Of a DNA stretch of 48,245 nucleotides, positions 15,475 to 46,201 are shown piece by piece (the stretch's first letter is position 1; each line of letters begins with the position of its first letter). The position numbers and the translations under genes were made by a program. Origin of the DNA: Dehalococcoidia bacterium (GTDB lineage: Bacteria > Chloroflexota > Dehalococcoidia > UBA2247 > RBG-13-53-26); contig JAFGCL010000066.1 of NCBI GenBank assembly GCA_016932645.1, positions 1 through 48,245 on the forward strand, written 5' to 3'. Under the pieces are notes generated by a model. That model ran no database searches. It was not told where the DNA came from and saw only the letters and a list, made by a program, of their open reading frames with translations.

Positions 15475-15503
15475 TTGACAGGCACCATTCGCTATGCTAT
15501 AAA
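15475..15503 (+). promoter_or_regulatory. sigma70-type promoter (TTGACA-17 nt-TATAAA with TGc extended -10)
   Basis: TTGACA at 15475-15480, a 17-nt spacer, then TATAAA at 15498-15503 preceded by TGC. It lies about 27 nt upstream of the riboswitch aptamer. Confidence 0.55.
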
Positions 15504-15529: not shown

Positions 15530-15616
15530 GGGCGCATGGGGCAAACCCGCCGAAAGGCGGGGACGCAAAGCTACGAGTCTAACGCCGCGAAGGCCATGAC
15601 GGTTGAGCTGCCGCCT
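15530..15616 (+). promoter_or_regulatory. c-di-GMP-I (GEMM-I) riboswitch aptamer, copy 1
   Basis: GGGCGCAUGGGGCAAACCCGCCGAAAGGCGGGGACGCAAAGCUACGAGUCUAA... matches the remembered Vc2 GEMM-I core (GGGCAAACC, GAAA-capped hairpin, GGGACGCAAAGCC, CUAA receptor). P1 pairs GGGCG with CGCCU. A gapless 87-nt homologue (72/87 identical) lies at 39131-39217 on the minus strand. Confidence 0.8.
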
Positions 15617-15633
15617 TAGAGAGTCTATGTAAT

Positions 15634-15675
15634 GGATACTCTTTGGCCAGCGCCAGGGTGTATCCTATTTTTGTT
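15634..15675 (+). terminator. intrinsic terminator (riboswitch expression platform)
   Basis: GGAUACUCUUUGGC-CAGC-GCCAGGGUGUAUCC forms a hairpin by hand folding (14 positions, 1 mismatch, 2 G-U pairs). It is followed by UAUUUUUGUU, 25 nt before the GTG start at 15700. Confidence 0.6.
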
Positions 15676-15699: not shown

Positions 15700-18261
15700 G
15701 TGAAGTTCGACAGAGCGAGCGTCAAGACCGGGAGAGGCAGGCTTGTGGCACTATTGACAGCCACTGCTTTGCTTATAACCATGATTCCTCTCTTGATGGC
15801 TCTCGTCGAAGACCATGATTCGGGTGACCAGTCAAATACGTCGCCACTGGTTCAGTTGACCCCGCATTTCCCGGTCGCTACAAACAGCCTGTTCTGCTCC
15901 ATCATGGCACCGGGATCAGACACGAACGAAGGCAGTCTGATCTGTGACTATGCCTGGTACAAGGATGGGGTGCTGCAGCCCCAGTTCACTGGCGATACTG
16001 TAGACGGTAGCTATACGGCCAAGGGGCAGACGTGGAGATGCATTGTCACTTTCAACAATGGTAGAGGCATATGCACAGGTTTCGATGAGGTTACCGTTGG
16101 CAACAGCCCGCCTACAGCCCCGGTGGCAGATGTGATCCCTGATATGGCATATGGCGGGGATGACCTCGTGTGCGCCATCAAGACCCCGAGCTTTGATGCG
16201 GACGGGGACGTCATAACCTATACGTATGCCTGGTACAAGGACGGCGTGCTGCAGCCCAATCTGACCGGCGACACTGTAGCCGCCAGCTACACGTCAAGGG
16301 GAGAGACTTGGAGATGCGCAGTCACTGCCAGCGATGCTGAAAGCGCTGTCGCAGGCAGCTTCGATGAGGTCAGCATACCCAGCGGAAACAATCCACCGAG
16401 CGCCCCGGTTGTTGCCATTTCCCCGGTACTCCCGACTTCCACGGACAGCCTGCTGTGCTCTCTGAAAGTAGAGAGCACAGACCTGGACGGGGACCCTGTG
16501 ACCTACACGTATGCCTGGTACAAGGACGGCGTTCTGCAGCCTCACTTGACTGGAAATACTGTCAAGGCCAGCTATACGGTCAGGGGAGAGACGTGGAAGT
16601 GCGTGGTCACCGTCAGCGATGGCCAGGGTGGCAGTGCTGGCGGCTTCTGTGAAGCCACCATCCACAACTGTCCTCCGTCGCCTCCACTGATTGCAATCTC
16701 CCCGGATGAGCCGCTCACGATAGACAACCTGGAGTGCTCCATCACGCTAGCCAGTTCAGATGCGGACGGGGATGCCATAAGCTACACCTATGCCTGGTAC
16801 AAAGACGGTATCCTGCAGCCTCAATTCACGGGCAGTTCGGTTGACTCGAGTTACACGTCCTTGTGGGAAACGTGGAAATGCGCCGTGACAGCCAGTGATG
16901 GTAGAGATAGCAGTGTTCGCACCGACGAAGTCAGCATCACCGGCGAGATGAAAGCGCTGTACGTGTGGTCCTGGAGTTGGCAGTTGTTCGACAAGGTGGC
17001 TGAAGGGCAGTACTTCCTTGATATCTGCAGCGAGGAAGGCATCAACACCGCCTTTGTCGCCGCGGGTGACAGCGATGTTCAGGATTTGATCCAGAACTCC
17101 CCGGCGAAGATCCGGAGATTCATTCAGGACGCGAACGCCAGTGGCGTCCGGGTCTACGCGCTGCTGGCCAGGATGGACTACGGGGTGGAGGCGGCATTGC
17201 AGCCCAGTGTGGAAGCCATACTGAAGTACAACCACGACAACCCTGACTGCAAGTTCGAGGGCATCCACTTCGACCTCGAGCCGCCCGGAGGCTCGTCGCT
17301 ATCCCAGCACGCGGCCTACCTGGCGGAATGCACCACCTTCTTCCAACATTTGAAGACGTGGTCCTATGATGGGGAGAATGTAGCCAGCCAGGATGTCGCC
17401 CTGGGCATGTTTGTCGACCCGAGGTGGAGCAGTTCTGCATGCGCGGCGAACTACAGCAGCCTGGTGAGGGGACTGGACTATATGGACATCGCGGCCTACC
17501 GTGCGCCTCCGGAGACCGGCATAGCCAGCGTACAGGGATGTGTTGATCTTACGGTGGCTGAGGGCAAGCCCTTTGACATTGCCCTGGAGACGGCGGAGTT
17601 CCCCTACAATAGCGATGGTGCTACCACCTACTACGAGGAGGGTAGGGCAGGGCTGGAGAACTGTATGTCGGTGATGAGGGAGTACTACAAGACCAACTAT
17701 GCGGATTATTGCCTGGGGTTCGCCATCCATCACTACGAGAACTCCATACAGGCATTGCATATCATCAAGTTAGTCCAGTGGCCGTCAGGAACATATGGCG
17801 TGGGGAGCAGTGTGTCGGCCACGGTGACGCTTCACCCGTCTGACTACTACTACTGGAGGGCGTACGGCGTGAAGCTGGAAGTGAGGGACAGTGCGGGCAC
17901 CATCTGGGTGATATCGAGGATCATCTGCATGCACTACTCCTCGAACACCAGGGAGGTGACACTGACGTGGACGGTCCCGTCGGCAGCGGCGAAGGGCAGT
18001 TGCGATGTGAGAGTAAGCCTCTGGGATGTGGACCTTCATGACGAAGGCCATTATTCCAAGCTATGGTACTCGGACTTCTCCTCAACGTACTATGGGGACT
18101 CTGCCGGCCAGAAGGCTGCACTTGAGGCGTATTCCATGGAGAGCCTCGCAGCCCTGACGTACCGACCGGCCGACCCGGCACAGGCCTTGACAGGCAAGAG
18201 AGACCCGTTCATCGAGCTGCAGAGCTCCGGCTGGAGTGAAGACCTGTTCAACGTTACCTAG
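15700..18261 (+). CDS. secreted/membrane-anchored repeat protein: 4 x ~93-aa Cys-pair/DxDGD repeats plus a ~440-aa C-terminal domain (paralogue of 35845..39057)
   Basis: 853-aa ORF with a GTG start and GAGG 5 nt upstream. A basic N-terminus is followed by the hydrophobic segment LVALLTATALLITMIPLLMAL. Four tandem units and a C-terminal region are clearly homologous to the 1070-aa protein (shared motifs GINT, FDLEP, DPRW, DSAGT-W, LTGKR). Confidence 0.9.
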   Translation: MKFDRASVKTGRGRLVALLTATALLITMIPLLMALVEDHDSGDQSNTSPLVQLTPHFPVATNSLFCSIMAPGSDTNEGSLICDYAWYKDGVLQPQFTGDTVDGSYTAKGQTWRCIVTFNNGRGICTGFDEVTVGNSPPTAPVADVIPDMAYGGDDLVCAIKTPSFDADGDVITYTYAWYKDGVLQPNLTGDTVAASYTSRGETWRCAVTASDAESAVAGSFDEVSIPSGNNPPSAPVVAISPVLPTSTDSLLCSLKVESTDLDGDPVTYTYAWYKDGVLQPHLTGNTVKASYTVRGETWKCVVTVSDGQGGSAGGFCEATIHNCPPSPPLIAISPDEPLTIDNLECSITLASSDADGDAISYTYAWYKDGILQPQFTGSSVDSSYTSLWETWKCAVTASDGRDSSVRTDEVSITGEMKALYVWSWSWQLFDKVAEGQYFLDICSEEGINTAFVAAGDSDVQDLIQNSPAKIRRFIQDANASGVRVYALLARMDYGVEAALQPSVEAILKYNHDNPDCKFEGIHFDLEPPGGSSLSQHAAYLAECTTFFQHLKTWSYDGENVASQDVALGMFVDPRWSSSACAANYSSLVRGLDYMDIAAYRAPPETGIASVQGCVDLTVAEGKPFDIALETAEFPYNSDGATTYYEEGRAGLENCMSVMREYYKTNYADYCLGFAIHHYENSIQALHIIKLVQWPSGTYGVGSSVSATVTLHPSDYYYWRAYGVKLEVRDSAGTIWVISRIICMHYSSNTREVTLTWTVPSAAAKGSCDVRVSLWDVDLHDEGHYSKLWYSDFSSTYYGDSAGQKAALEAYSMESLAALTYRPADPAQALTGKRDPFIELQSSGWSEDLFNVT
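15841..16947 (+). repeat. 4 tandem coding repeats (~280 bp / ~93 aa each)
   Basis: Repeat core L-x-C...(S)SD-x-DGD-x-(I/V)-(T/S)-YTYAWYKDG(V/I)LQP...TG-x-(T/S)V...SYT...(G/W)ETW(K/R)C-x-VT. The first unit is degenerate and lacks DxDGD. Confidence 0.9.
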
Positions 18262-18389: not shown

Positions 18390-19118
18390 ATGAGCAGGTT
18401 GGTCGTGACTACGAGCTGGGACGATGGCGGCAAAGAGGACCTCAGACTCAGTGAACTGCTGGCTGAGTACGGTATCAGGGGGACCTTCTACATTCCCAAG
18501 ACTCATCAGAAGGCTGAGCCTCTGCGGGAAGAAGAGATACTGGCCGTAGCGGAGAAACATGAGATCGGCGCCCATACTTTGGATCATGTTGACCTGACCG
18601 GCATTCCTGCGGAGCAGGCTCAGGCTGAGATTGCGGGCTCCAAGGCGTATTTGGAGGACATCCTGGGCAAGAGCGTCAGGATGTTCTGCTACCCCTATGG
18701 ACGATACAATGCCCGAACAAAGGAAATCGTGGCAAGCTGCGGATTCGCCGGAGCCAGGACTCTCAGGTACACCAAGCTGGGGACCGTAACTGACCCTTAT
18801 GAATTCGGTGTGACGCTTCACGCTTCAAACAGTTCACCTCGCACCACTCTCAGGATCTGGCGCGCTTATGGAACATCGCTCAGATCCCTGCTGGATTGGG
18901 AGAATCGGGCGAAGGCTCTCTTCCAACTGGCGCTGGCAGAAGGCGGTGTCTGGCACCTGTGGGGGCATTCCTGGGAGATCAACCGTGCGCATGAATGGGA
19001 CAAGCTGGAGAGGGTGCTGGACTGCGTCTCGAAGAGAGACGGGGTCCGCTACGCCACGAACTCCGAGGCCGTTGACATCTGCCTGGCCGAGACTGGGCAG
19101 GTTCCCCGCAGCCCCTGA
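18390..19118 (+). CDS. polysaccharide deacetylase (NodB homology domain, CE4-like)
   Basis: 242-aa ORF with TSWDDGG (Asp-Asp motif), GAHTLDH (H-x-x-x-H metal motif) and FCYPYGRYN. Confidence 0.85.
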   Translation: MSRLVVTTSWDDGGKEDLRLSELLAEYGIRGTFYIPKTHQKAEPLREEEILAVAEKHEIGAHTLDHVDLTGIPAEQAQAEIAGSKAYLEDILGKSVRMFCYPYGRYNARTKEIVASCGFAGARTLRYTKLGTVTDPYEFGVTLHASNSSPRTTLRIWRAYGTSLRSLLDWENRAKALFQLALAEGGVWHLWGHSWEINRAHEWDKLERVLDCVSKRDGVRYATNSEAVDICLAETGQVPRSP

Positions 19119-32709: not shown

Positions 32710-33528
32710 CTACGATGTCGTCTCCTCCACGGTTATCGAGAGGTTGGCGGTACGGTACAACTCGGTGCCCCCGTCTTTATGTTTGTATAGCAGGAACTCA
32801 ATCTCCTGACGCCCCGACTTGGTGGGGACGATGGTGACCGTCTCGTCCCGTGCCTCCCCGTGAGTCAAAGTGAACCGTTCTTTCTCTTCCACCACTTCGC
32901 TGTCAACTCGCGCTTGAACATGGTAGGAGGTGCTCTCGTGCTCTTGACTCGCGATGTGCAAGGTCACCGTCAGTGGCTCTCCAATGGCCAGTCTCGTCGG
33001 GTAGTCTCCCGCTGCCGGTATGTAGAACTCGGTGAACTTCTCTCCCTGCCTGGGGACGGCCATGACGTAGACCAGGGCTCCTGTTCCCACCAGGATCGAC
33101 AGCACCAGAATGATCGAGAGGGCCTTCTCCAGCCGGTTCAGTTGGCTCCACTTGGAGGACTCAACCCGGGGCAGCACATGGAATCTCTCCTCTATTGGGA
33201 GCCTTCGCCGCAGCCAAATGGCAATGGCCGCTGCAACCAGGATGAAGATGGCAATCGATGCAGTGACAGTGTAGAGATTGATGCCCAGGGGGGTGTAGTT
33301 GAGAATCAGCCCTATTGCGATGACAACGGCGATGCTCGATGCGAAGCTCAAGGCCACCCTCTCCATGGGGTCGAGGCTGTCCTTCCTGGGAAAGACGGCG
33401 GCTATCAGAGTGTAGCCGGGAAAGAAGAGCAGGAACAGCAGTCCGAGAACAACCCGTATCCATCCAGTTGTAAGTAGGACGACTGGTATCAGGAGCAGCG
33501 TGAGAGCGACGATGAAGATCAGTCCCAT
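32710..33528 (-). CDS. DUF1616-like membrane protein
   Basis: The N-terminal block LFFPGYTLIAAVFPRKDSLDPMERVALSFASSIAVVIAIGLILNYTPLGI matches my memory of the mostly archaeal DUF1616 family. The C-terminal half is beta-rich and extracytoplasmic. Confidence 0.7.
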   Translation of the reverse strand: MGLIFIVALTLLLIPVVLLTTGWIRVVLGLLFLLFFPGYTLIAAVFPRKDSLDPMERVALSFASSIAVVIAIGLILNYTPLGINLYTVTASIAIFILVAAAIAIWLRRRLPIEERFHVLPRVESSKWSQLNRLEKALSIILVLSILVGTGALVYVMAVPRQGEKFTEFYIPAAGDYPTRLAIGEPLTVTLHIASQEHESTSYHVQARVDSEVVEEKERFTLTHGEARDETVTIVPTKSGRQEIEFLLYKHKDGGTELYRTANLSITVEETTS

Positions 33529-35844: not shown

Positions 35845-38800
35845 CTATGTCAGTGTGATGCCTCCCTGCCAATCGGTGGCCTGCAGCATGAAGAATGTGC
35901 TGCGCTTTCCTGTGAGAGTACCATTGGGACCAGTCGTCGTTGCTGCCAGTTCGTCCATCGTCATGGCCAGCAATTGGCTCTGATACCCGGAATAGTTGCT
36001 GTAGTAGAGGATGTCGTAGTAGCTTTCGTTGTACCATCCTACTGCCCACATGGTAAGACGGACAGTGGCAGCGCCAGCGGCGACACCTTCCGGAACAGTC
36101 AGGCTGATAGTACGGTTGGTGGTCTGACCGTCGACGAGGTCGATGATCTGGTTGACCTTCCATACGGTACCGGCAGAGTCCTTCAGTTCCATCTGGATGC
36201 CGAAGACCCGGTGCGAGTAGCGGTCGGTGCGGCGGCGCGTCTGGTAGTTAATGGTCATCGTGTCGCCAGGCGCAAACGTACCGCTCGGCGATGAAGTCAC
36301 CGAGTCGATGTTGAACCAGTACACGAACCCGCCGGCATCGAAGTAGGTGGTATACCCGACGAAGTTGTCCGGGTAGTGCGCATTGTAGTAGTCTGCGTAG
36401 TCCTGCATGGCCTGTTCATATCCTTCGCGGCCCAGATTGAATCGAGAACCGTATGGATCGGAGGCTTCATAGGTCTTGGGCAATTCGTCGCAGGACAGAG
36501 TGCATGTGAAGTACCGGCCCTCATTGATGACTACCGCCAGAGCGTTGGCAGTGTAGGCCAGCGAGTAGTCAATACCATCGGCGTAGCTGCCGCCACCCCA
36601 CCGGTAGTGTTCTATCTCTACCACATCAAGCTGAGAGACAACCTGTGCCCATGCGGTAGCGCAAACAGCGCCGCCCCATCGAGGGTCACAGAACATGGCA
36701 ACAGTCAACTCCTGGCTGTCTATCGTCTCTGTACCGTCAACCGTGAAACCTCTCATGGTCTGCATTGTGGCGTAGACGCCTTCAAGGAACACACGGTGCT
36801 GCTCCGTCGTTGAGCCGCTTGAAGGCTCCAGGTCGAACTGCAGGCCAGTGAATCTCGCTGTCGGGTTATCCTTGTTCCAGTTCAGAACGGCGTCGAAGAA
36901 CTCATGCCAGGTATGGCCATCTGTGTCGTCATCCCACCCGGTATGGTTGCTGTTCCAGCAGGCCCAGACCTGGATGCCGGCAGCATTGAACGCGGCTATC
37001 CCTGTTGCCACGCTGGATTGTTCGTCACTGAGCTTGGCAAACACGGTGGCATCAACATTGATCTCCACGGTGTTAATGCCGAAGTCCTGGCAGCCCTTGA
37101 TGAGGTGAGCCCTGTCGGAGGTGTTGGTGAGGTAGCGCCAGGCCACCCCGTATGTGAGCAGGGAGTTGACATAACCTGGGTTCCTGGGGCCGGAGGCTGA
37201 GGATGCAGTGGTAACCTGGTCGTAACTGCTAGCACTGCCGCCGGAACCGTCCCTGGCAGTAACGACGCAACGCCAAGTCTGCCCTTCTCCTGTGTAGCCT
37301 GCGTCCACGGTATCGCCGGTCAACTCAGACTGCAGGACGCTGTTCTTGTACCAGGCGTAGGTGTAGGTTATGGCGTCCCCATCTGCGTCCGAGCTGGGGG
37401 TTGTGATAGAGCACAGCAGGTTGTCTGCTTCAACCGGATCGTCCGGCGTAACGTCTACTGCCGGAGCGGTCGGTGAACTGTTGTGGATGGTGACCTCATC
37501 AAATCCCTCGGCGATGGCGCCTGTGCCGTCGCTCGCGGTGAGGACGCACTTCCAGGTCTCCCCTTTGGTGGTGTAGCTGGAGCTGACAGTATTGCCGGTC
37601 AAGCCGGTCTGGAGAACGCCGTTCTTGTACCAGGCGTAGGTGTAGGTTATGGTGTCTCCGTCTGCGTCTGAACTCGGCACGTTCGCAGAGCACACCAGGT
37701 TGCTAGTGGTAACTGGCAGATCCGGAGTGATATCCGCCACGGGAGCAGTGGGCGTGCTATTGTAGATGGTGACGTCATCGAAGCTACCGGCGCTGCCGCC
37801 TGCCCCGTCAGTGACGGTGACGATGCACTCCCACAGCTCTCCTTTGGTGGTGTAGCTGGCATCTACGGTGTTGCTGGTCAGATGAGTCTGCACAACGCCG
37901 TTCTTGTACCAGAGATACGTGTATGTCAAAGCATCCCCGTCTTCATCAGAGCTGGGGACCACGATAGAACACAACAGACTGTCGACGGTGGTCGGCAGGT
38001 CCGGAGAAATGGCAACCACTGGAGCAGTTGGAGGGTTGTTGCTGCCGGATATGGTGACCTCGTCGAAACTACCGGCGCTGCCGCCTGCGGCATCGGCAAC
38101 GGTGACGACGCACTTCCATGCTTCTCCTCTGGCTGTGTAGCCGGAGTCAACTGTGTTCCCGGTCAAGTTGGTCTGCAGGGCATCATCCTTGTACCAGGCA
38201 TACGTGTAAGTCAGGGAATCCCCGTCCGGATCTGAGCTGGGGACCACGATAGAGCACAGCAGGCTATCTGTGGTTGCCGGCTGGTCTGGAGTGATGTCCA
38301 CCACCGGAGCCGTGGGCGGTTCATTCTGGACTGTAACCTCATCGAAGCCGGCGCTGCTGTCTGTGCCATCACTGGCTGTGACGAGGCATTTCCAGGTCTG
38401 CCCCTTGGCTGTGTAGCCGGCGTCTACGGCACTGCCGACGAACTGGGGTTGCAGGACCCCATCTTTGTACCAGGCGAAGGTGTAGGCTATGTTGTCTCCA
38501 TCGGCATCTGAACTTGTAGACGCAATCGAGCCCACCAGGCCGTCTCCGGAAACCGGCAACTCCGGGGCGATATCTACGACAGGAGCTGTCGGCGGGCTGT
38601 TCTGTATCGTAACCTCATCTGACTGGGTGGCAGTCCTGTTGCGGCTGCCCCTGCTGACGACCTTGGTGGTGACAACGCACTTCCAGGTTTCCCCCTTGGC
38701 TGTGTAGCTGGCGTCGATCGTATTACCGGTCAACCCGGTCTGCAGAACGCCGTTCTTGTACCAGGCATAGGAGGCCGTGGTTCGGGTACGGGAAGTTAAG

Positions 38801-39057
38801 GTGTTGTTGATGGAGCATATCAAGTCGTCGGTAGAAACGGGCCAGTTTGGCGTTATGTCCACTGCCGAGACTGTGGTTGTTTCCTTTTGTGTTTTAGCTG
38901 ACACCGCGTCAGGACTGGACGAGTCGCCTCCGCTGTAGACGACAAGGCCTATCGTAAGCGGGAGCAGCATCGCAACGACAAGCCCGAGGGCCAGAAGCCC
39001 AAGGGGCCGCCTGCTCTTCCGCTGACCTTCCCTTCGTACATTCGCATTGTGTTTCAT
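35845..39057 (-). CDS. secreted/membrane-anchored repeat protein: 6 x ~93-aa Cys-pair/DxDGD repeats plus a ~450-aa C-terminal domain (paralogue of 15700..18261)
   Basis: 1070-aa ORF with GGGAGG 7 nt upstream of the ATG. A basic N-terminus is followed by LGLLALGLVVAMLLPLTIGLVV. Six tandem units are followed by a C-terminal domain homologous to the 853-aa protein. Confidence 0.92.
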   Translation of the reverse strand: MKHNANVRREGQRKSRRPLGLLALGLVVAMLLPLTIGLVVYSGGDSSSPDAVSAKTQKETTTVSAVDITPNWPVSTDDLICSINNTLTSRTRTTASYAWYKNGVLQTGLTGNTIDASYTAKGETWKCVVTTKVVSRGSRNRTATQSDEVTIQNSPPTAPVVDIAPELPVSGDGLVGSIASTSSDADGDNIAYTFAWYKDGVLQPQFVGSAVDAGYTAKGQTWKCLVTASDGTDSSAGFDEVTVQNEPPTAPVVDITPDQPATTDSLLCSIVVPSSDPDGDSLTYTYAWYKDDALQTNLTGNTVDSGYTARGEAWKCVVTVADAAGGSAGSFDEVTISGSNNPPTAPVVAISPDLPTTVDSLLCSIVVPSSDEDGDALTYTYLWYKNGVVQTHLTSNTVDASYTTKGELWECIVTVTDGAGGSAGSFDDVTIYNSTPTAPVADITPDLPVTTSNLVCSANVPSSDADGDTITYTYAWYKNGVLQTGLTGNTVSSSYTTKGETWKCVLTASDGTGAIAEGFDEVTIHNSSPTAPAVDVTPDDPVEADNLLCSITTPSSDADGDAITYTYAWYKNSVLQSELTGDTVDAGYTGEGQTWRCVVTARDGSGGSASSYDQVTTASSASGPRNPGYVNSLLTYGVAWRYLTNTSDRAHLIKGCQDFGINTVEINVDATVFAKLSDEQSSVATGIAAFNAAGIQVWACWNSNHTGWDDDTDGHTWHEFFDAVLNWNKDNPTARFTGLQFDLEPSSGSTTEQHRVFLEGVYATMQTMRGFTVDGTETIDSQELTVAMFCDPRWGGAVCATAWAQVVSQLDVVEIEHYRWGGGSYADGIDYSLAYTANALAVVINEGRYFTCTLSCDELPKTYEASDPYGSRFNLGREGYEQAMQDYADYYNAHYPDNFVGYTTYFDAGGFVYWFNIDSVTSSPSGTFAPGDTMTINYQTRRRTDRYSHRVFGIQMELKDSAGTVWKVNQIIDLVDGQTTNRTISLTVPEGVAAGAATVRLTMWAVGWYNESYYDILYYSNYSGYQSQLLAMTMDELAATTTGPNGTLTGKRSTFFMLQATDWQGGITLT
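37210..38874 (-). repeat. 6 tandem coding repeats (~280 bp / 92-95 aa each)
   Basis: Linker (P/T/S)PTAP occurs at residues 155, 247, 342, 435 and 529. Consensus: PPTAPVVDI-PD-P...LLCSI..PSSD-DGD..TYTYAWYK(N/D)GVLQ..LTGNTVD..YT.KGETWKCVVT..DG.GGSAGSFDEVTI. The first unit is degenerate. Confidence 0.92.
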
Positions 39058-39071
39058 GATCTGACCTCCCC

Positions 39072-39114
39072 AAAAAAGAACTACTCTTTGGCGTCAGCCG
39101 CCAGAGAGTAGTTC
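39072..39114 (-). terminator. strong intrinsic terminator (riboswitch expression platform, copy 2)
   Basis: The minus strand reads GAACUACUCUCUGGCG-GCUGA-CGCCAAAGAGUAGUUC (16-position stem, 1 mismatch) followed by UUUUUU, then the GGGAGG Shine-Dalgarno and the AUG. Confidence 0.7.
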
Positions 39115-39130
39115 TCCCTACTTCTCTTGT

Positions 39131-39217
39131 AGGCGGCAGCCCGACCATCATCGCCTCTTCGGCCTTAGACTCGTGGCTTTGCGCCCCCGTCTTTCGGCGG
39201 GTTAGCCCTTTTCGCCC
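39131..39217 (-). promoter_or_regulatory. c-di-GMP-I (GEMM-I) riboswitch aptamer, copy 2
   Basis: The minus strand reads GGGCGAAAAGGGCUAACCCGCCGAAAGACGGGGGCGCAAAGCCACGAGUCUAAGGCCGAAGAGGCGAUGAUGGUCGGGCUGCCGCCU. It is 87 nt long, aligns without gaps to copy 1 (72/87 identical), and the second helix shows pairing-preserving substitutions. Confidence 0.75.
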
Positions 39218-39375
39218 TTATGCTGTTAAGTCTGGATCGATGTACCAGTGAAAGCTGTAGTGTTCCTGTTCTCTATCCCTGCAGTGTCTCCTCTCGGGCG
39301 GCAGCTCTGTATGCCAGGTCTGCCATTGCGGCCATCGGCCGCAGAACGAACTAGTGAGCCAAGCTCATGGACTTG

Positions 39376-39613
39376 TCACAGGAGTTCTTGCCATAGATCA
39401 CAGATGTGTCACAGAAGTGTGAGGTCATCTCACAGAATCTTGGCTGAAAACGTCCTTTGCGGTGAGGGTGGTGTGACCCTGGAGTATCCACGTTGCTGAC
39501 TCTCTCTGCTATATGGGGAGGTGCTGTAGTCGTACTAGTCTTGCTTTATCCTCTGCAAAGCCTATCACAGTGGCCTCACAACTGTGTCTCAGAGGGGGCA
39601 GTTGCCGTCACAG
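39376..39613. promoter_or_regulatory. cluster of TCACAG motifs including a TGTGA-N7-TCACA palindrome (candidate transcription-factor binding array)
   Basis: Exact TCACAG on the plus strand at 39376, 39398, 39409, 39430, 39565 and 39608, plus TCACAA at 39576. Start-to-start spacings within the sub-clusters are 22, 11, 21 and 11, 32 nt. A palindrome TGTGA(39418-39422)-N7-TCACA(39430-39434) is present. Confidence 0.3.
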
Positions 39614-39981
39614 ACTTTTCCTTTGTATGGGAGTCATGCGCTGGACGTTTGGTTCTGGCGAGGGTTATGCGACTTGGATGGCGACACTGCTGTGCATCGC
39701 ATTGCGGTCAGCCATGGAGGCGAATGGGACCCCGGCGAGGGCGTTGATCTGCCTCTCGATCAAGTGGGGGCAGCGGCCCCACCGGTATCTCGTGCAATCT
39801 CCCCTGCTGCTATCTACAGGGGAACCGGAGTGCAATCATCTGTTCAAGGCCGGAGGTCATTCATCTCCGGCGGAAGGCGACCTTGCAGCCCGCACGTGAA
39901 GTGGAGGCGAATGCCCCGTGGGTCCAGGACATCTGATATGCTATATGGCGGATTTCCAGTGTAACGGGAGGTATTTCGGAC

Positions 39982-41286: not shown

Positions 41287-42102
41287 TCATGTCGGAGGCG
41301 CTCCAAGTGCCTGAATCAACCGTTGCAGGAACTCCGCCACCTCTGTCGGAGACCTGAGGAAGTAATGGGCCGCCGTAGTGCGACCGGGCTCTCCAACGTA
41401 GATGGAAACCCCCTCATGCGTGTTCACCACCTTGAACCCGCCTTCATCCGTCAGGTCATCTCCGAGGAATATGGCCAGACTGGCGTTGCCGCCCGTGGAC
41501 GAGATCCAACCGCTCATCAGCAGGACGATGGCATCTTCCTTGTCCCAAAGCACACCCGGTCGTATCTCGTAGACCTTCTTACCTTCGGTGGTTCTGATCT
41601 TGCCCTCGGAGCGGAGCCTGCTGACAGTCTCTTCGCAGATTCTCTTCAGTTCATCCACCCTGTCTTCTCTGACCAGTCGGTAGTGGACCGTCAGCGTGAT
41701 CCCCTTGTCTTCGACCAGAGCCCCCTCAAAGCCGGCCAGAACCTCACTCAGACTCGAGTGCAGGCGGCGGATAACAGGTCTTAGAGACTCTGCCGGAGGA
41801 TAGACGAACTTGAGCCATGGCCCCTCTATTTCTATTCCATGGTTTCCGGCATAGGTTACTCCACGTATTCCCACTCTGTTCCTGATGTCACTGAGAGCCC
41901 TCCCGCTGACCACCGCCACACCCACTCGTTCATGGGACACAAGTGCCTCTACTGCCCGCCTGGTGTCTTCTGGAAGCGCGGCCTCTCCCGGCCTGCCCAC
42001 AATGGGTGACAGAGTACCATCGAAGTCAGTCAGGAGCAGGATCTGCCTAGCCGTCTTGATGCGCTCCCCGATCCCTTGCCACGCGGAGAAGAGGTGCTCC
42101 AT
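41287..42102 (-). CDS. otsB: trehalose-6-phosphate phosphatase (HAD superfamily)
   Basis: HAD motif I LLTDFDGTL, then VVSGR and GDDLTDE, placed 2 nt downstream of otsA. Confidence 0.85.
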   Translation of the reverse strand: MEHLFSAWQGIGERIKTARQILLLTDFDGTLSPIVGRPGEAALPEDTRRAVEALVSHERVGVAVVSGRALSDIRNRVGIRGVTYAGNHGIEIEGPWLKFVYPPAESLRPVIRRLHSSLSEVLAGFEGALVEDKGITLTVHYRLVREDRVDELKRICEETVSRLRSEGKIRTTEGKKVYEIRPGVLWDKEDAIVLLMSGWISSTGGNASLAIFLGDDLTDEGGFKVVNTHEGVSIYVGEPGRTTAAHYFLRSPTEVAEFLQRLIQALGAPPT

Positions 42103-42104
42103 TC

Positions 42105-43640
42105 TTACCCTCCGAACTCGAGCTTCACCATCTCAGTCACGATGTCAGCAGCCCACTTGTAGACATTGTTCTCCTCGACCACTGCCCGCATCCGGCGCAT
42201 GCGACGCTGCCTTTCTGCCAGCGGCATCTCCAGGGCCTCCTTCATCGCTGCGGCGAAATGGTCAGTGGCATAGGGATTCACCATAACAGCGTCACTCAGT
42301 TCCCGGGCGGCTCCCGTGAACTGGCTGAGGAGCAGAACCTTGTCCTCGTCAAAGGCGCTGGCCACGAACTCCTTGGCTACCAGGTTCATGCCATCATGGA
42401 GAGAGCTGACTACGGCGAAGTCGGCCAGGCGCCGCAGTGCCATTACCGTCAGGGGTGAGAGAGGCCCCCGAAGATCGATAATTGGCTTCCAGCGATCCGA
42501 TTCGTACTTCCAGTTGATCTTATCAATTAGGCTATCGATCTCGTCATTGATTCTCCTGTAGGCCGGGACATGGACGCGGCTGGGCACACCGGTCTGTATG
42601 AATACGACACGGTTCCGGTAGTCAGGATATCGCTCCAGAAACCGCTCAACGGCCCGAAGCCTGTCCGGTATACCCTTGGTGTAGTCGATCCTGTCCAACC
42701 CCATGCCGACGAACCTGTCCTTCAGTTCCAGGCTCTTCGTGAGCCTCGCCATCTCGGCTTCCACTTCCGCCCCCCGAGCCCTCCGAGATACGTCCTCGAA
42801 GTCTACACTGATGGGGAAGGGACGAATAGCAGTCTTCTCGCCTCCGTGCGTTGCCTCATACCTGTCACGGTCCACCCTGGCCTCGATGGTTCGATCAAGG
42901 GTATCCAGGAAGTTGTTGCAGTGGTATCGGAGATGGAAGCCCAGGAGATGGTTGCCCAGCAGCCCTTTCAAGATGTCCTCCTGCCAGGGACAAACCCGGA
43001 AGGCCTCCGGGTTAGGCCATGGAATATGCCAGAACTGCGCAATGATGAGGTTGGGGTTCGCCTCGCGCAGCAAGCGCGGCAGGAGCGTGAGATGGTAGTC
43101 CTGGACAAAGACGAAGGCCTTGCTGTCGCCCACCTCCTCGAGCACAACCTGGGCAAAGCGCTCGTTGACTGCTCTGTAGGTATTCCATTCGGCTTCTTTG
43201 AAAGTCGGCCGGGTGTAGGCTATATGGCACAGCGGCCAGAGCGCATCGTTGGAGAAGCCATAGTAGTAGCCATCCTCCTCTTCTTTGGTAAGCCAGACCC
43301 GCCTGAGAGTGTAGCTTGGGTCATCCGGTGGCACCTGAACGCGATCACTTTCGTCTACGGTCTCCCTATCGGCATTCCCACTGCCATGGGCTATCCAGGT
43401 ACCTCCGCACGCTCGCATGATAGGATCAAGCGCCGTGGTCAAGCCGCTGGGAGGCATGTCACACTGGATGGCGCCGGAGACACGGCTGTGAACATACGGC
43501 TCCCGATTGGAAACCACCAGAAGGAGGTGGTCCCCCAGTCTATCCCATACCAGCTGGCGTATACCATCACGCGTCCACATCCTGCAACCTCCTTCAGCCC
43601 ACACGGCATGCCAGAACCGCACGAAGGCGGAGCGGCTCAA
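42105..43640 (-). CDS. otsA: alpha,alpha-trehalose-phosphate synthase (GT20)
   Basis: GT20 signatures [19 protein letters not shown] and [13 protein letters not shown]. The start could alternatively be ATG 43580. Confidence 0.9.
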
Positions 43641-43655
43641 GTCTTGGCGAACTGA

Positions 43656-44873
43656 CTACAGATTAATCATGTCCTCATTGTGATCGAGCGCTATGAACAG
43701 CAGCAGGTAGTCCCGAATGTGGCGGGTCAGCAGGAAGTTCTGCCTCACATGCTCTTTCCCGTTCTCTCCCAGCGAGCGTGCAAATTCCGGATTACTGAGA
43801 AGCTGCCGGAGGGCATAGGCAGTTCCTTCGACATCGTGGGACAGCAACCCCGTGATCTTATGCTTCACCTGGAGGGGAATTCCGCCTACTGCCGAGGCCA
43901 CTACGGGTTTCGCCTTCCACAGGGCTTCGCTCACCGTGAGAGCGAAGCCCTCTTTCAGAGACTTCTGCACAATAATAGTGGATGCTCTTTGGAGGGCATT
44001 GATCTCGATGTCGGTCCTTGCCTGTCCCGATATGATGTAGATGTCACGATTGCCGCCTGCTCTCTCCTTCACTTCGGCCAAAACCTTCTCCCCCTCGGGG
44101 TCATCCGCAGCGCCGCCACCTACCAGGACCAGCGTCGCGTCAATGTGCTTCCTAACCAACTCAAAGGCCCTGATGACGCCCACCGGGTCTTTCATGTAGT
44201 CAAAACGGGAGACCTGAGTGATGATGGGTTTGTCCTGTGGGATGCCGAAGTTCCTCATCGTGGCGTCAATTATGTCCCGAGGGAGTTCCCTATTCTTGTC
44301 GCTGAGCGGGTCGATGGAGGGCGAGATGAGAAACTGCCGGATGGGGAGAGGCCCTGAGAAAGCCGGGGCGGAGAAGACGGCAGCGTCGTAACGCACTATG
44401 AATTGTTTCAAGAACTGCCACACCACCTCGTCCGGCCTTGAGACGTCTATGTGACAGCGCCATATCCACTTCTTACCCATCTGCGTCTTTTGCTCAACCA
44501 GCGCTGCCGGTTGAGGGTCGTGGATGAAGAGGATGTCCCCATAGAGATCCATCTCCTTCAGGTTCCCGCGGTTCGTCTCCATGTAGACCGCCAGGTCCTG
44601 CTCCGAAATGGCCTCCTTTCGCCCGTGCAGCGCGTTGTGGAACTTCTTCGTTACCTGAAAGAAGTCGGGGTTGCCCTTGATGACGTTCCAGCGGGCATCG
44701 ACGCCCAGATCCTGCAGCAGCGGTATCATTCGGTTCAGGATCTCGGCTACTCCACCCCCGACGGACGTGGAATTGATGTTCTGAATGATCTTGCCAGACA
44801 GCTTGGAACCAAGGAGCCTCAACTCCTCTATAGAACTCCGGCCCACGATAGGCTCGTAGTCAGTTATCCTCAC
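43656..44873 (-). CDS. GT4-type glycosyltransferase, TreT-like / trehalose-synthase-complex GT-like
   Basis: N-terminal NSTSVGGGVAEILNRMIPLLQDLGVDARWNVIKG...FFQVTKKFHNALHG resembles archaeal TreT-type enzymes from memory. The C-terminal QKSLKEGFALTVSEALWKAKPVVAS is GT4-like. The GTG start overlaps the msc stop (GTGA). Confidence 0.75.
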   Translation of the reverse strand: MRITDYEPIVGRSSIEELRLLGSKLSGKIIQNINSTSVGGGVAEILNRMIPLLQDLGVDARWNVIKGNPDFFQVTKKFHNALHGRKEAISEQDLAVYMETNRGNLKEMDLYGDILFIHDPQPAALVEQKTQMGKKWIWRCHIDVSRPDEVVWQFLKQFIVRYDAAVFSAPAFSGPLPIRQFLISPSIDPLSDKNRELPRDIIDATMRNFGIPQDKPIITQVSRFDYMKDPVGVIRAFELVRKHIDATLVLVGGGAADDPEGEKVLAEVKERAGGNRDIYIISGQARTDIEINALQRASTIIVQKSLKEGFALTVSEALWKAKPVVASAVGGIPLQVKHKITGLLSHDVEGTAYALRQLLSNPEFARSLGENGKEHVRQNFLLTRHIRDYLLLFIALDHNEDMINL

Positions 44874-46201
44874 CCGATCTCCTTTTCTACTATCCTTATC
44901 AGCGATGCTCTCAGGCCCTCCAACGTGTATGTGTAGGGGTCAAGATCAGAGATCTTGCGTGCCAATTCGTTCTCGCCCAAGCTGTCTGCCAGCCAGGACG
45001 AGAAATCATTCGTGCCCCTTCCCAGCCTCAGTCTCGACTCAAATACATGGAAGTAGAGGGATCCTGCGCTGAGATTCCTGAGAGCGTCCAGAAACTCCCG
45101 TATGTCGTTGGCGGTGTATGGCGTTGGCACGATCACGCTGATGGACTTCACGAAGTGGAACTCGTCTCCCTCCGCCGCTTCCCGCAGGCCGTCTCCGCGG
45201 GCAAGATAGTCCTCCACTATGCTGATGTGCCTGTCCCGCAAAGCCTGGAGAGTCGCGAAATCATAAGTGTCCACGCTGGCCAACCGCTCCGCGAGGACTT
45301 CATCGCCCAGTGCCTCATCCACCCATATCGCGAAGTCGTTCGAGGGCTGTGGTGTGAGATAATGGTGCTCTTCCAGGAAGTGGTGAGTGTGATAGTAGAC
45401 AACTGAGTCTGGCACGGTCTTCAGGATGTCGACAAACTCCCTCAGATTCCTGGCCTTGAGTCCCGTTAGCTCCTTGAGATGAGACCTGTCATGGAAACGA
45501 AATGGCTCCCTTGCCTTTTTGGTCGGACGCCCGAGATTGACTACGGTCGACCGAGCCAGCTTTCTGTTGGGAATAATGATGACACCCCCGCTTGGGCCCT
45601 TGACAATGGTACTCCGCCAGGTTATCTGGTTAACGTAGCCTTCTTCGCCGGTTTCGGTCAGCTTGATGAAGTCGCCGACGCTGTAATGGCGCGAGGTGCC
45701 TAGCTGGAGTGCAGCCACCAGATCAGGACCCACATCCCTTGCCACGAGCAAGGCGAGCAGGGTGAGAATGCCGGCAGCCAGAAGAATGGCGGTAATAGGC
45801 GCCCCCCATATTTCCAGAAGCGTCAACACCGTTATCAGGATGATGACGATCCTGGCAAGCTGCCAGACCACCTTGCTGGCCTGTTCAGATGCCTTCAGGT
45901 GCGCTCCCCATAGCCTGATGAGCCTGCCCACCATGCTGAGCAGGCAGAGAGCAAGGGAAAGTGCAAAGAGCGTCCACAATCCCTTATCCGTGGGCACTTC
46001 CCACTCGGACGGGATTCTAGAGACGGCCACCGCCAGCCACGCGGCGACAGTGAGCGCCCAGATTACTGACGGAATGCTTGTCGTCTGGCGGAGTATCTCA
46101 AACCCACCCCAACCCGTCTCCTTGGACCACTTCTGCAGCCATGACCGAGTCAACTGCCTCAGCCACAAGCCGGCGACCAGAACACAAATGCCTACCACCA
46201 C
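44870..46201 (-). CDS. MscS-family mechanosensitive channel fused to a tandem-duplicated C-terminal domain
   Basis: TM helices are followed by the MscS beta-domain VGDFIKLTETGEEGYVNQITWRSTIVKGPSGGVIIIPNRKL. Two ~100-aa mutually similar units follow (see findings). Confidence 0.8.
   Translation of the reverse strand: MVVGICVLVAGLWLRQLTRSWLQKWSKETGWGGFEILRQTTSIPSVIWALTVAAWLAVAVSRIPSEWEVPTDKGLWTLFALSLALCLLSMVGRLIRLWGAHLKASEQASKVVWQLARIVIILITVLTLLEIWGAPITAILLAAGILTLLALLVARDVGPDLVAALQLGTSRHYSVGDFIKLTETGEEGYVNQITWRSTIVKGPSGGVIIIPNRKLARSTVVNLGRPTKKAREPFRFHDRSHLKELTGLKARNLREFVDILKTVPDSVVYYHTHHFLEEHHYLTPQPSNDFAIWVDEALGDEVLAERLASVDTYDFATLQALRDRHISIVEDYLARGDGLREAAEGDEFHFVKSISVIVPTPYTANDIREFLDALRNLSAGSLYFHVFESRLRLGRGTNDFSSWLADSLGENELARKISDLDPYTYTLEGLRASLIRIVEKEIG

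Follow-up and report, generated by a model that had tools for sequence, protein, structure and literature searches.

Does the second of two class-I cyclic di-GMP (c-di-GMP) aptamers in a Dehalococcoidia genome form a working riboswitch, which ligand does it sense, and in which direction would it act? The window that we analyzed is the whole 48,245-nucleotide (nt) stretch of contig JAFGCL010000066.1 (assembly GCA_016932645.1), and the element in question, hereafter copy 2, lies on its minus strand upstream of a gene for a repeat-containing, predicted glycoside-hydrolase-like protein; copy 1 precedes a paralogous gene. An initial annotation, made from the sequence of the window, had described copy 2 as a second GEMM-I (class-I c-di-GMP) riboswitch with departures at conserved positions, and had tentatively proposed that c-di-GMP switches the genes behind both copies OFF. 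Our analyses establish copy 2 as a genuine second class-I c-di-GMP aptamer and suggest that it is probably a functional riboswitch that acts, like copy 1, as a transcriptional OFF switch.

The Rfam covariance scan (cmscan) of the window returned exactly two aptamers of clan CL00126, namely copy 2 (39216..39131 on the minus strand, 66.4 bits, E 1.3e-13) and copy 1 (15531..15616 on the plus strand, 63.6 bits), both of which exceed the 59-bit threshold of the RF03167 model. A covariance model that we built from seven related aptamers (R1) found the same two aptamers only, with scores of 108.7 bits for copy 2 and 107.7 bits for copy 1. Copy 2 belongs to type 1 of the class, with a GNRA tetraloop, and its elements are listed in Table 1, where the recognition bases are numbered as in the Vc2 aptamer. 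Across the seven sequences, 96.6% of the cells of the 25-pair aptamer structure were paired, against 21-45% in slid controls. All P3 pairs (100%) were kept, one of them with changes on both sides and four with one-sided changes; in the whole aptamer, two pairs carried changes on both sides. The pairing-preserving differences between the copies that had been noted in the second helix are found in P3, at columns 44/81 (C-G vs U-A), 47/79 (G-C vs G-U), and 49/75 (G-U vs G-C). The individual bases first read in copy 2 are likewise present as described: (i) the GGG at the G20 position, which stands before CUAACC; (ii) the altered segment GGGCUAACC, with its U at the position of U23; (iii) the unaltered segment GCAAAGCC, which includes A47; (iv) the G in place of A before CGCAAAG; and (v) the C-A mismatch in the GAAA-capped hairpin. 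Each aptamer lies on the same strand as its downstream gene, with 74 nt between the end of copy 2 and the ATG at 39057, and 84 nt between the end of copy 1 and the GTG at 15700.

We then considered what lies between aptamer and gene. Both leaders contain, besides the aptamer, a pair of alternative structures: an intrinsic terminator and an antiterminator that shares strands with both the terminator and the aptamer. The terminator stem and the aptamer do not overlap in either copy, and the two are compatible; the stem starts 17 nt after P1 in copy 2 and 18 nt after P1 in copy 1 (15 and 17 nt, respectively, in an automated finder that extended the stem base slightly). A direct ON design is ruled out, because the terminator does not overlap the aptamer. 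In copy 2, the expression platform runs from GCCGCC through the linker UACA, the purine tract AGAGAAGUAG (39127-39118), and the loop GGGAGAA to CUACUCUCUGGCGGC (39111-39097). The P1 3' strand and the purine tract had been predicted to pair with the 5' arm of the terminator, and in copy 2 this antiterminator is the minimum free energy (MFE) structure of its segment. For copy 1 the predicted antiterminator also exists as the segment MFE (-13.8 kcal/mol, z -3.6, with 0 of 200 shuffles as good), in a slightly different register from the one first drawn: AGAG is matched by CUCU, a further inner helix (GUCUAU:AUGGAU) forms, and of the 14 bases in the terminator 5' arm, 11 are still covered. By energy folding, the terminators reach -26.8 kcal/mol (z -7.6) in copy 2 and -19.1 kcal/mol (z -4.2) in copy 1, and both the antiterminator and the terminator of copy 2 are much stronger than those of copy 1. 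Energy folding was used for the terminators in place of a promoter/terminator consensus scanner, which called no element at either leader: a single internal mismatch interrupts each terminator stem, and the copy 1 promoter failed solely for the A at the end of its -10 hexamer. The Shine-Dalgarno sequence of the copy 2 gene is not sequestered by the terminator.

These elements suggest a mechanism based on four short segments, namely GGCG (P1 5' strand), CGCC (P1 3' strand), GGCG (where the terminator 5' arm has its top), and CGCC (in the terminator 3' arm), which allow two mutually exclusive pairings. Without ligand, P1 would be weak, and its 3' strand, together with C92, the preceding G, and the purine tract, would pair with the terminator 5' arm as soon as this arm is made; the freed P1 5' strand could even capture the CGCC of the terminator 3' arm. 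With the antiterminator formed, RNA polymerase would pass the U-tract and the gene would be transcribed. With c-di-GMP bound, P1 and C92 would be locked and the GGCG atop the terminator 5' arm would be left free, such that the terminator could nucleate there, displace the remaining short hairpin by branch migration, and stop transcription 15 nt before the start codon.

Folding of the growing transcript supports this order of events in silico. The MFE of the whole leader was of little use, with the aptamer misfolded, and we substituted prefix folding, in which every transcript length was folded either unconstrained or with P1 enforced to mimic ligand binding. Unconstrained, P1 gave way to the antiterminator once the GGC(G) of the terminator 5' arm was out in five of six related leaders, that is, in copy 2, copy 1, and the orthologous leaders L001, L003, and L004 (described below), and the antiterminator remained the MFE until almost the whole terminator 3' arm had been transcribed. 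In copy 2, it was the MFE of transcripts of 128-145 nt when P1 was not enforced. With P1 enforced, the terminator nucleated immediately at GGCG/CGCC and then grew. At intermediate lengths, the MFE without ligand paired the P1 5' GGCG with the terminator 3' CGCC and the P1 3' CGCC with the terminator 5' GGCG; this strand swap (first segment with fourth, second with third) occurred in four leaders, with a P1 pair probability of at most 0.007. The heuristic barrier from antiterminator to terminator was 14.7-16.1 kcal/mol in the free state, compared with 3.3-7.5 kcal/mol in the P1-locked state. The initial annotation had named computed folding as what might speak against its antiterminator pairing; both the prefix and the segment folds support that pairing, and the prefix folds and barriers lend support to its reading of an antiterminator without ligand and a terminator when P1 is stabilized. 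For copy 2 as well as copy 1, these calculated energetics thus point to OFF polarity.

Comparison with orthologous leaders was possible at four syntenic metagenomic loci (L001 to L004), which we reached via homologs of the two downstream proteins. All four leaders keep the aptamer, the antiterminator potential, the terminator, and the U-tract. In the L001 terminator, two double compensatory changes are accompanied by the repair of one mismatch; at the strand shared by the two alternative structures, its A>G and C>U substitutions keep the antiterminator through G·U pairs and are compensated in the terminator 3' arm. In L002, the base of the terminator stem has been re-made. L003 and L004 are nearly identical to copy 1, whose platform is nearly invariant in them. 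A lineage-specific pattern scan of metagenomes yielded three loci only, one of them identical to L002, and the ortholog set stayed at four. A pattern scan of genomes yielded 78 loci, mostly from Bacillota, with a few from Chloroflexota and one from a Chitinophagales metagenome-assembled genome (MAG); none is close to the window, and we used them for family-level statistics only. Among the 77 related leaders with terminators, the complementarity of the aptamer 3' end to the terminator 5' arm was significant against shuffles (p<=0.05) in 20, and natural partners paired better than permuted ones (Wilcoxon p = 0.003). Moreover, changes in the P1 3' sequence go along with changes at the terminator apex in other lineages, as in L085, where UUGCCGAAAA is found with UUUUGGCAA. 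The distant repeat-protein homologs with beta-helix heads at L005 and L006 have no riboswitch. Two further pairings were considered and dropped: that of AGCUGC in copy 1 with a downstream GCAGCU was rejected, as it is not kept in L003 and L004, and that of the copy 2 aptamer 3' region with the Shine-Dalgarno region was set aside as too weak to weigh.

Three other explanations have to be weighed against a c-di-GMP-responsive OFF switch. Altered ligand specificity of copy 2, or of both copies, would make them sensors of a ligand other than c-di-GMP, as RF03167 or some other variant; this appears very unlikely, even though RF03167 ('c-di-GMP-I-GGC') is the best-scoring clan member and the top Rfam label for both copies and all orthologs, with very similar P2 and P3 sequences, and even though copy 2 carries U23 and G43, which are rare bases found in 2 and 6, respectively, of 104 related aptamers. 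We take the 'GGC' of this label to mean G20/G47/C92, as the consensus of the RF03167 model suggests and as Weinberg et al. 2017 reportedly define it. By that definition neither copy is a c-di-GMP-I-GGC aptamer: the conserved G of the variant model, in CGC-G-AAG, faces an A in both (CGC-A-AAG, a mismatch in the cmscan alignment), and this A is, by our count, the equivalent of A47 in Vc2. Nor does either copy belong to the cyclic GMP-AMP (cGAMP)-selective GEMM-Ib group, which carries an A at the G20 position; both have G here, so the earlier argument from G20 against cGAMP specificity was correct, and the same position is G in 100 and A in 4 of the 104 related aptamers. G20, A47, and C92, which have been identified as key c-di-GMP recognition bases in Vc2 (PMC11218506), are all canonical in copy 1 and copy 2. 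The RF03167 label itself does not discriminate: it is also the top label for aptamers with the forced pattern CGCAAAGC (for example, L008, L015, L034, and L075), and sibling aptamers with identical bases are labeled RF01051 instead. Because these aptamers are split between the two families, the label does not track the base at position 47; RF03167 seems to win the clan contest on E-value even where RF01051 has the higher bit score for sibling aptamers. A further, lower-scoring clan member also passed its own threshold on each copy. Because A47, G20, and C92 are kept, we read both copies as ordinary, parental-type c-di-GMP sensors, neither GGC variants nor of the cGAMP type, a ligand identity that we infer from their bases. 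In practice, the RF03167 'GGC variant' label falls on many A47 aptamers and is in itself no evidence of altered specificity. The same departures of copy 2 could be regarded as the first signs of loss in a decaying, non-functional duplicate, given that three departures from the family consensus fall in one aptamer arm and that non-functional class-I copies occur in Clostridioides difficile (PMC6366702). U23 occurs only in copy 2 and L001, each time together with G43, and the C·A pair in P2 is found in 7 of the 104 aptamers. Decay is disfavored, because L001, which comes from another metagenome and whose surrounding DNA is ~85% identical to the window, retains all three departures, and we hold it to be very improbable. 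In addition, the aptamer is conserved far better than the upstream leader, copy 2 outscores copy 1 in the Rfam scan, and in L002, which has the consensus AAA/GAC loop, the C·A has turned to U-A, so that the P2 pair is maintained. Across the clade, this pair is C-G in copy 1, U-A in L002, G-C in L085, and C·A in four of seven sequences, and it behaves, as judged from these bases, as a pair passing through a tolerated intermediate. None of the three departures (U23, G43, and the C·A mismatch) falls on a ligand contact.

The remaining alternative concedes that the aptamer binds c-di-GMP and denies that it switches as predicted, the leader being either a constitutive attenuator that is locked OFF, as has been reported of Bc1 in vivo, or one governed by a protein or translational layer. 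Several observations weigh against the OFF switch, and some of them favor this alternative. Thermodynamically, the full leader always has the terminator as its MFE structure, and the switch would therefore depend on kinetics, which are approximated here. Only 4-6 nt of the antiterminator overlap the aptamer; most of it, the remaining 9 base pairs with a bulge, forms with or without ligand and thus independently of the aptamer. Among the few orthologs, the antiterminator shows no double-sided covariation, with one-sided, wobble-compatible changes only. In L002, and in L087, which is identical to it, the antiterminator loop contains a 35-nt tandem duplication (GCAUGGUCUCCUCAGGG twice), whose UCUCCU copies can pair with the purine tract as decoys that would free the terminator arm; in the prefix simulation, the L002 antiterminator was the MFE only intermittently, though it is still the MFE of the isolated segment. 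This duplication may retune or disable the switch. The U23, G43, and C·A departures may also bear on the affinity of copy 2. Class-I switches can be ON, as with Bc2, or unresponsive in vivo to c-di-GMP, as with Bc1, which has strong terminators (PMC11218506, PMC6366702), and because of these two cases polarity should not be extrapolated from class membership. Finally, a conserved upstream region with TCTGTGA repeats hints at extra protein-level control. A leader that does not switch would nevertheless leave unexplained why (i) both paralogous leaders and their orthologs show exact complementarity between the top of the terminator 5' arm and the P1 3' strand, (ii) the refolding barriers of the free and P1-locked states are 8-12 kcal/mol apart, and (iii) the same design is enriched across the aptamer subfamily. 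On balance, we consider the non-switching alternative unlikely.

The proposed OFF switch has a close counterpart. Cd1 (Cdi-1-3), upstream of flgB in C. difficile, has been shown experimentally to be an OFF switch (PMC9262584), in which the aptamer and the terminator are able to form together, each in competition with an antiterminator, and c-di-GMP favors termination (PMC9262584, PMC6366702). Like Cd1, both copies in the window have a class-I aptamer followed by a non-overlapping, compatible intrinsic terminator with a U-tract after it, and, from the segment and prefix MFE structures computed here, an antiterminator in which the 3' strand that closes the aptamer pairs with the terminator 5' arm, as in the P-A-T-H scheme. 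They differ from Cd1 in phylum (Chloroflexota) and in cargo (surface enzyme-like proteins rather than flagellar ones). Their platform is also much shorter, with an antiterminator that starts inside the aptamer and a terminator that ends, in copy 2, 15 nt before the start codon, and their four-fold GGCG/CGCC repeat lets the pairing partners be exchanged cleanly. In C. difficile, every one of the seven functional class-I switches is OFF (PMC6366702). Among them, the switch of zmpI (PPEP-1) ensures that an extracellular enzyme that undoes adhesion is made only at low c-di-GMP (PMC6366702), which is the same physiological logic as that proposed for the window genes; its cargo is a secreted metalloprotease that cleaves adhesins, whereas the cargo in the window is a membrane-anchored PKD-repeat protein with a predicted glycoside-hydrolase-like TIM barrel, encoded in a polysaccharide locus. 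Bc1 and Bc2 of the Bacillus cereus group and Vc1 and Vc2 of Vibrio cholerae share the aptamer class, with the GNRA tetraloop and its receptor (PMC11218506). They differ from what is proposed for the window copies: Bc2 favors read-through, the long platform of Bc1 carries two terminators (PMC11218506), and termination is not the means by which Vc1 and Vc2 act (PMC6366702). Copies 1 and 2 are thus most likely ordinary members of a known riboswitch class with the layout of the Cd1 OFF switch.

Table 1. Coordinates of the two leaders, their genes, and related features (window positions unless a locus is named; MFE, minimum free energy).
Feature	Position	Strand	Detail
Copy 2 aptamer	39217..39131	-	class-I (GEMM-I), type 1
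Copy 2 P1	39216-39213 with 39135-39132, plus G39217·U39131	-	aptamer closing helix
Copy 2 ligand-recognition bases	G20 = 39207, A47 = 39180, C92 = 39136	-	Vc2 numbering; sequence reading
Copy 2 P2 hairpin	39186..39201	-	CCCGCC-GAAA-GACGGG, mismatch C39197·A39190; sequence reading
Copy 2 internal loop flanking P2	U23 (39204), G43 (39184)	-	both unusual; sequence reading
Copy 2 P3 helix and distal GCC/GGC hairpin	39138..39178	-	tetraloop-receptor arm; 10 + 3 pairs
Copy 2 antiterminator	39097..39137	-	MFE -21.7 kcal/mol, z -5.15, 0/200 shuffles as good
Copy 2 antiterminator, outer helix	GCCGCC 39137-39132 with GGCGGC 39102-39097	-	G91, C92, and P1 3' strand; folding
Copy 2 antiterminator, second helix	AGAG(A)AGUAG 39127-39118 with CUACUCUCU 39111-39103	-	folding
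Copy 2 intrinsic terminator	39072..39114; stem 39114-39099 with 39093-39078	-	16 pairs including one C·A mismatch
Copy 2 terminator loop and U6 tract	U6 tract 39077-39072	-	loop GCUGA; sequence reading
Copy 2 Shine-Dalgarno sequence and start codon	39071-39065; 39057-39055	-	GGGGAGG and ATG; conserved in L001, L002
TCTGTGA repeats upstream of copy 2	39398-39404, 39409-39415, 39430-39436, 39608-39614	-	read on the minus strand
Copy 2 gene	35845..39057	-	1070 aa; N-terminal membrane anchor, six PKD/Ig-like repeats; C-terminal predicted TIM barrel (glycoside-hydrolase-like) and beta-sandwich
Copy 1 aptamer	15530..15616	+	P1 15531-15534 with 15612-15615; canonical AAA/GAC loop, perfect P2
Copy 1 platform	15613..15675	+	antiterminator 15613-15647; terminator 15634-15647 with 15652-15665; U-rich tract 15666-15675
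Likely copy 1 sigma-70-type promoter	15475..15503	+	TTGACA, 17 nt, TATAAA; hexamers invariant in L003, L004
Copy 1 gene	15700..18261	+	853 aa; same architecture, four repeats
Polysaccharide deacetylase gene	18390-19118		follows copy 1 gene
DUF1616 membrane protein, TreT-type trehalose synthase, mechanosensitive-channel/DUF5752 fusion	32710-33528, 43656-46201	-	
OtsA, OtsB	41287-43640		osmoprotection cluster
35-nt duplication	L002 872-920 (approx.); L087 1876-1909		two independent metagenomes
Tandem class-I loci	L011, L012, L027, L033, L037, L038, L040, L043, L052, L071, L074, L079		
G20/A20 pairs	L017 1737-1824 + 1885-1977; L077 2114-2203 + 2296-2386; L073 3857-3947 + 4018-4105		

Upstream of the aptamers, the two leaders were examined for promoters. 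The copy 1 transcript likely starts ~15-20 nt before the aptamer, as judged from the spacing of the probable promoter. In copy 2, ~450 nt of non-coding DNA 5' of the aptamer (39217-39700 on the minus strand) are conserved in L001 and L002 and contain direct repeats of the CTGTGA type, whose starts are separated by 11 and 21 nt, a spacing roughly in phase with the helix; we found no convincing sigma-70 promoter in this conserved region. Across the window, the motif is not enriched over chance (12 vs 9.6 expected), and the local cluster alone stands out. These repeats may represent an array of binding sites for a transcription factor or else an unusual promoter.

The arrangement of class-I aptamers elsewhere in the family was also recorded. 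In many related loci of Bacillota and Chloroflexota, class-I aptamers occur as same-strand tandem pairs, whose starts are mostly separated by 120-240 nt (L027, ~460 nt; L043, ~700 nt); the two copies of the window are not in tandem, as they lie on opposite strands, 23.5 kb apart. At three loci from Bacillota MAGs, a G20-type aptamer is found less than 200 nt from one with A20, the base typical of GEMM-Ib, and such pairs may be tandem sensors for two different cyclic dinucleotides. An unrelated bacterial large signal recognition particle RNA (195 bits) lies at L005 6934-7197, just 3' of the riboswitch-less repeat-protein homolog at that locus.

The two regulated proteins are paralogs with 40% identity, and the product of the copy 2 gene matches Pfam PKD_4 at 1.2e-10. 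Their C-terminal halves (encoded by 16942-18258 on the plus strand and 35848-37191 on the minus strand) gave nothing significant in Pfam and PDB sequence searches. Residues 415-853 of the copy 1 protein were modeled with AlphaFold2 (pLDDT 78.5), which gave an eight-stranded beta/alpha barrel with a beta-sandwich, and the C-terminal part of the 1070-residue paralog aligns with the modeled part at 30% identity. The nearest solved structures in the fold search were GH18 chitinases, SleL, and GH84, with low TM-scores of 0.32-0.37, because of which these matches support the fold only; the description of the regulated proteins as glycoside-hydrolase-like is thus supported, by the model and the fold search, at the level of fold. 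When the modeled part was aligned with its copy 2 counterpart and six homologs, FDLEP was invariant in all eight sequences, at the end of strand 4, the place at which GH18-type enzymes have their D-x-E. The C-terminal halves may represent an undescribed glycoside-hydrolase-like family tied to the polysaccharide locus. This locus occupies ~8-39 kb of the window and encodes GT4 glycosyltransferases, a flippase, methyl- and acetyltransferases, radical-SAM enzymes, and the deacetylase; an osmoprotection cluster is adjacent both to it and to the copy 2 leader. As to the lineage, all named homologs of FabF come from Chloroflexota or Dehalococcoidia, and the C-terminal part of the copy 1 protein shares 79% identity with a protein from a Dehalococcoidia MAG.

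What two such switches would mean can be put as a tentative proposal, more doubtful than not in our own estimate, that they constitute, in this uncultured, Dehalococcoidia-like member of Chloroflexota, a graded, RNA-level matrix remodeling module, in which paralogous GH18-like hydrolases that bracket the polysaccharide locus are made only when c-di-GMP falls. The threshold of copy 2 would differ from that of copy 1 through U23, G43, and the C·A mismatch together with its stronger antiterminator and terminator, and the partner swap would represent a compact variant of Cd1. Copies 1 and 2 leave the understanding of riboswitch mechanism unchanged. If the OFF reading is true, they would provide a well-resolved class-I c-di-GMP OFF switch from outside Bacillota, the source of almost all characterised examples. 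To our knowledge, the c-di-GMP biology of Chloroflexota is essentially unstudied. An OFF switch would fit a role for the regulated proteins in matrix turnover or dispersal at low c-di-GMP, and, if true, it would link low c-di-GMP to surface glycoside-hydrolase-like proteins in a polysaccharide locus and thereby offer a route to matrix turnover or dispersal in these bacteria.

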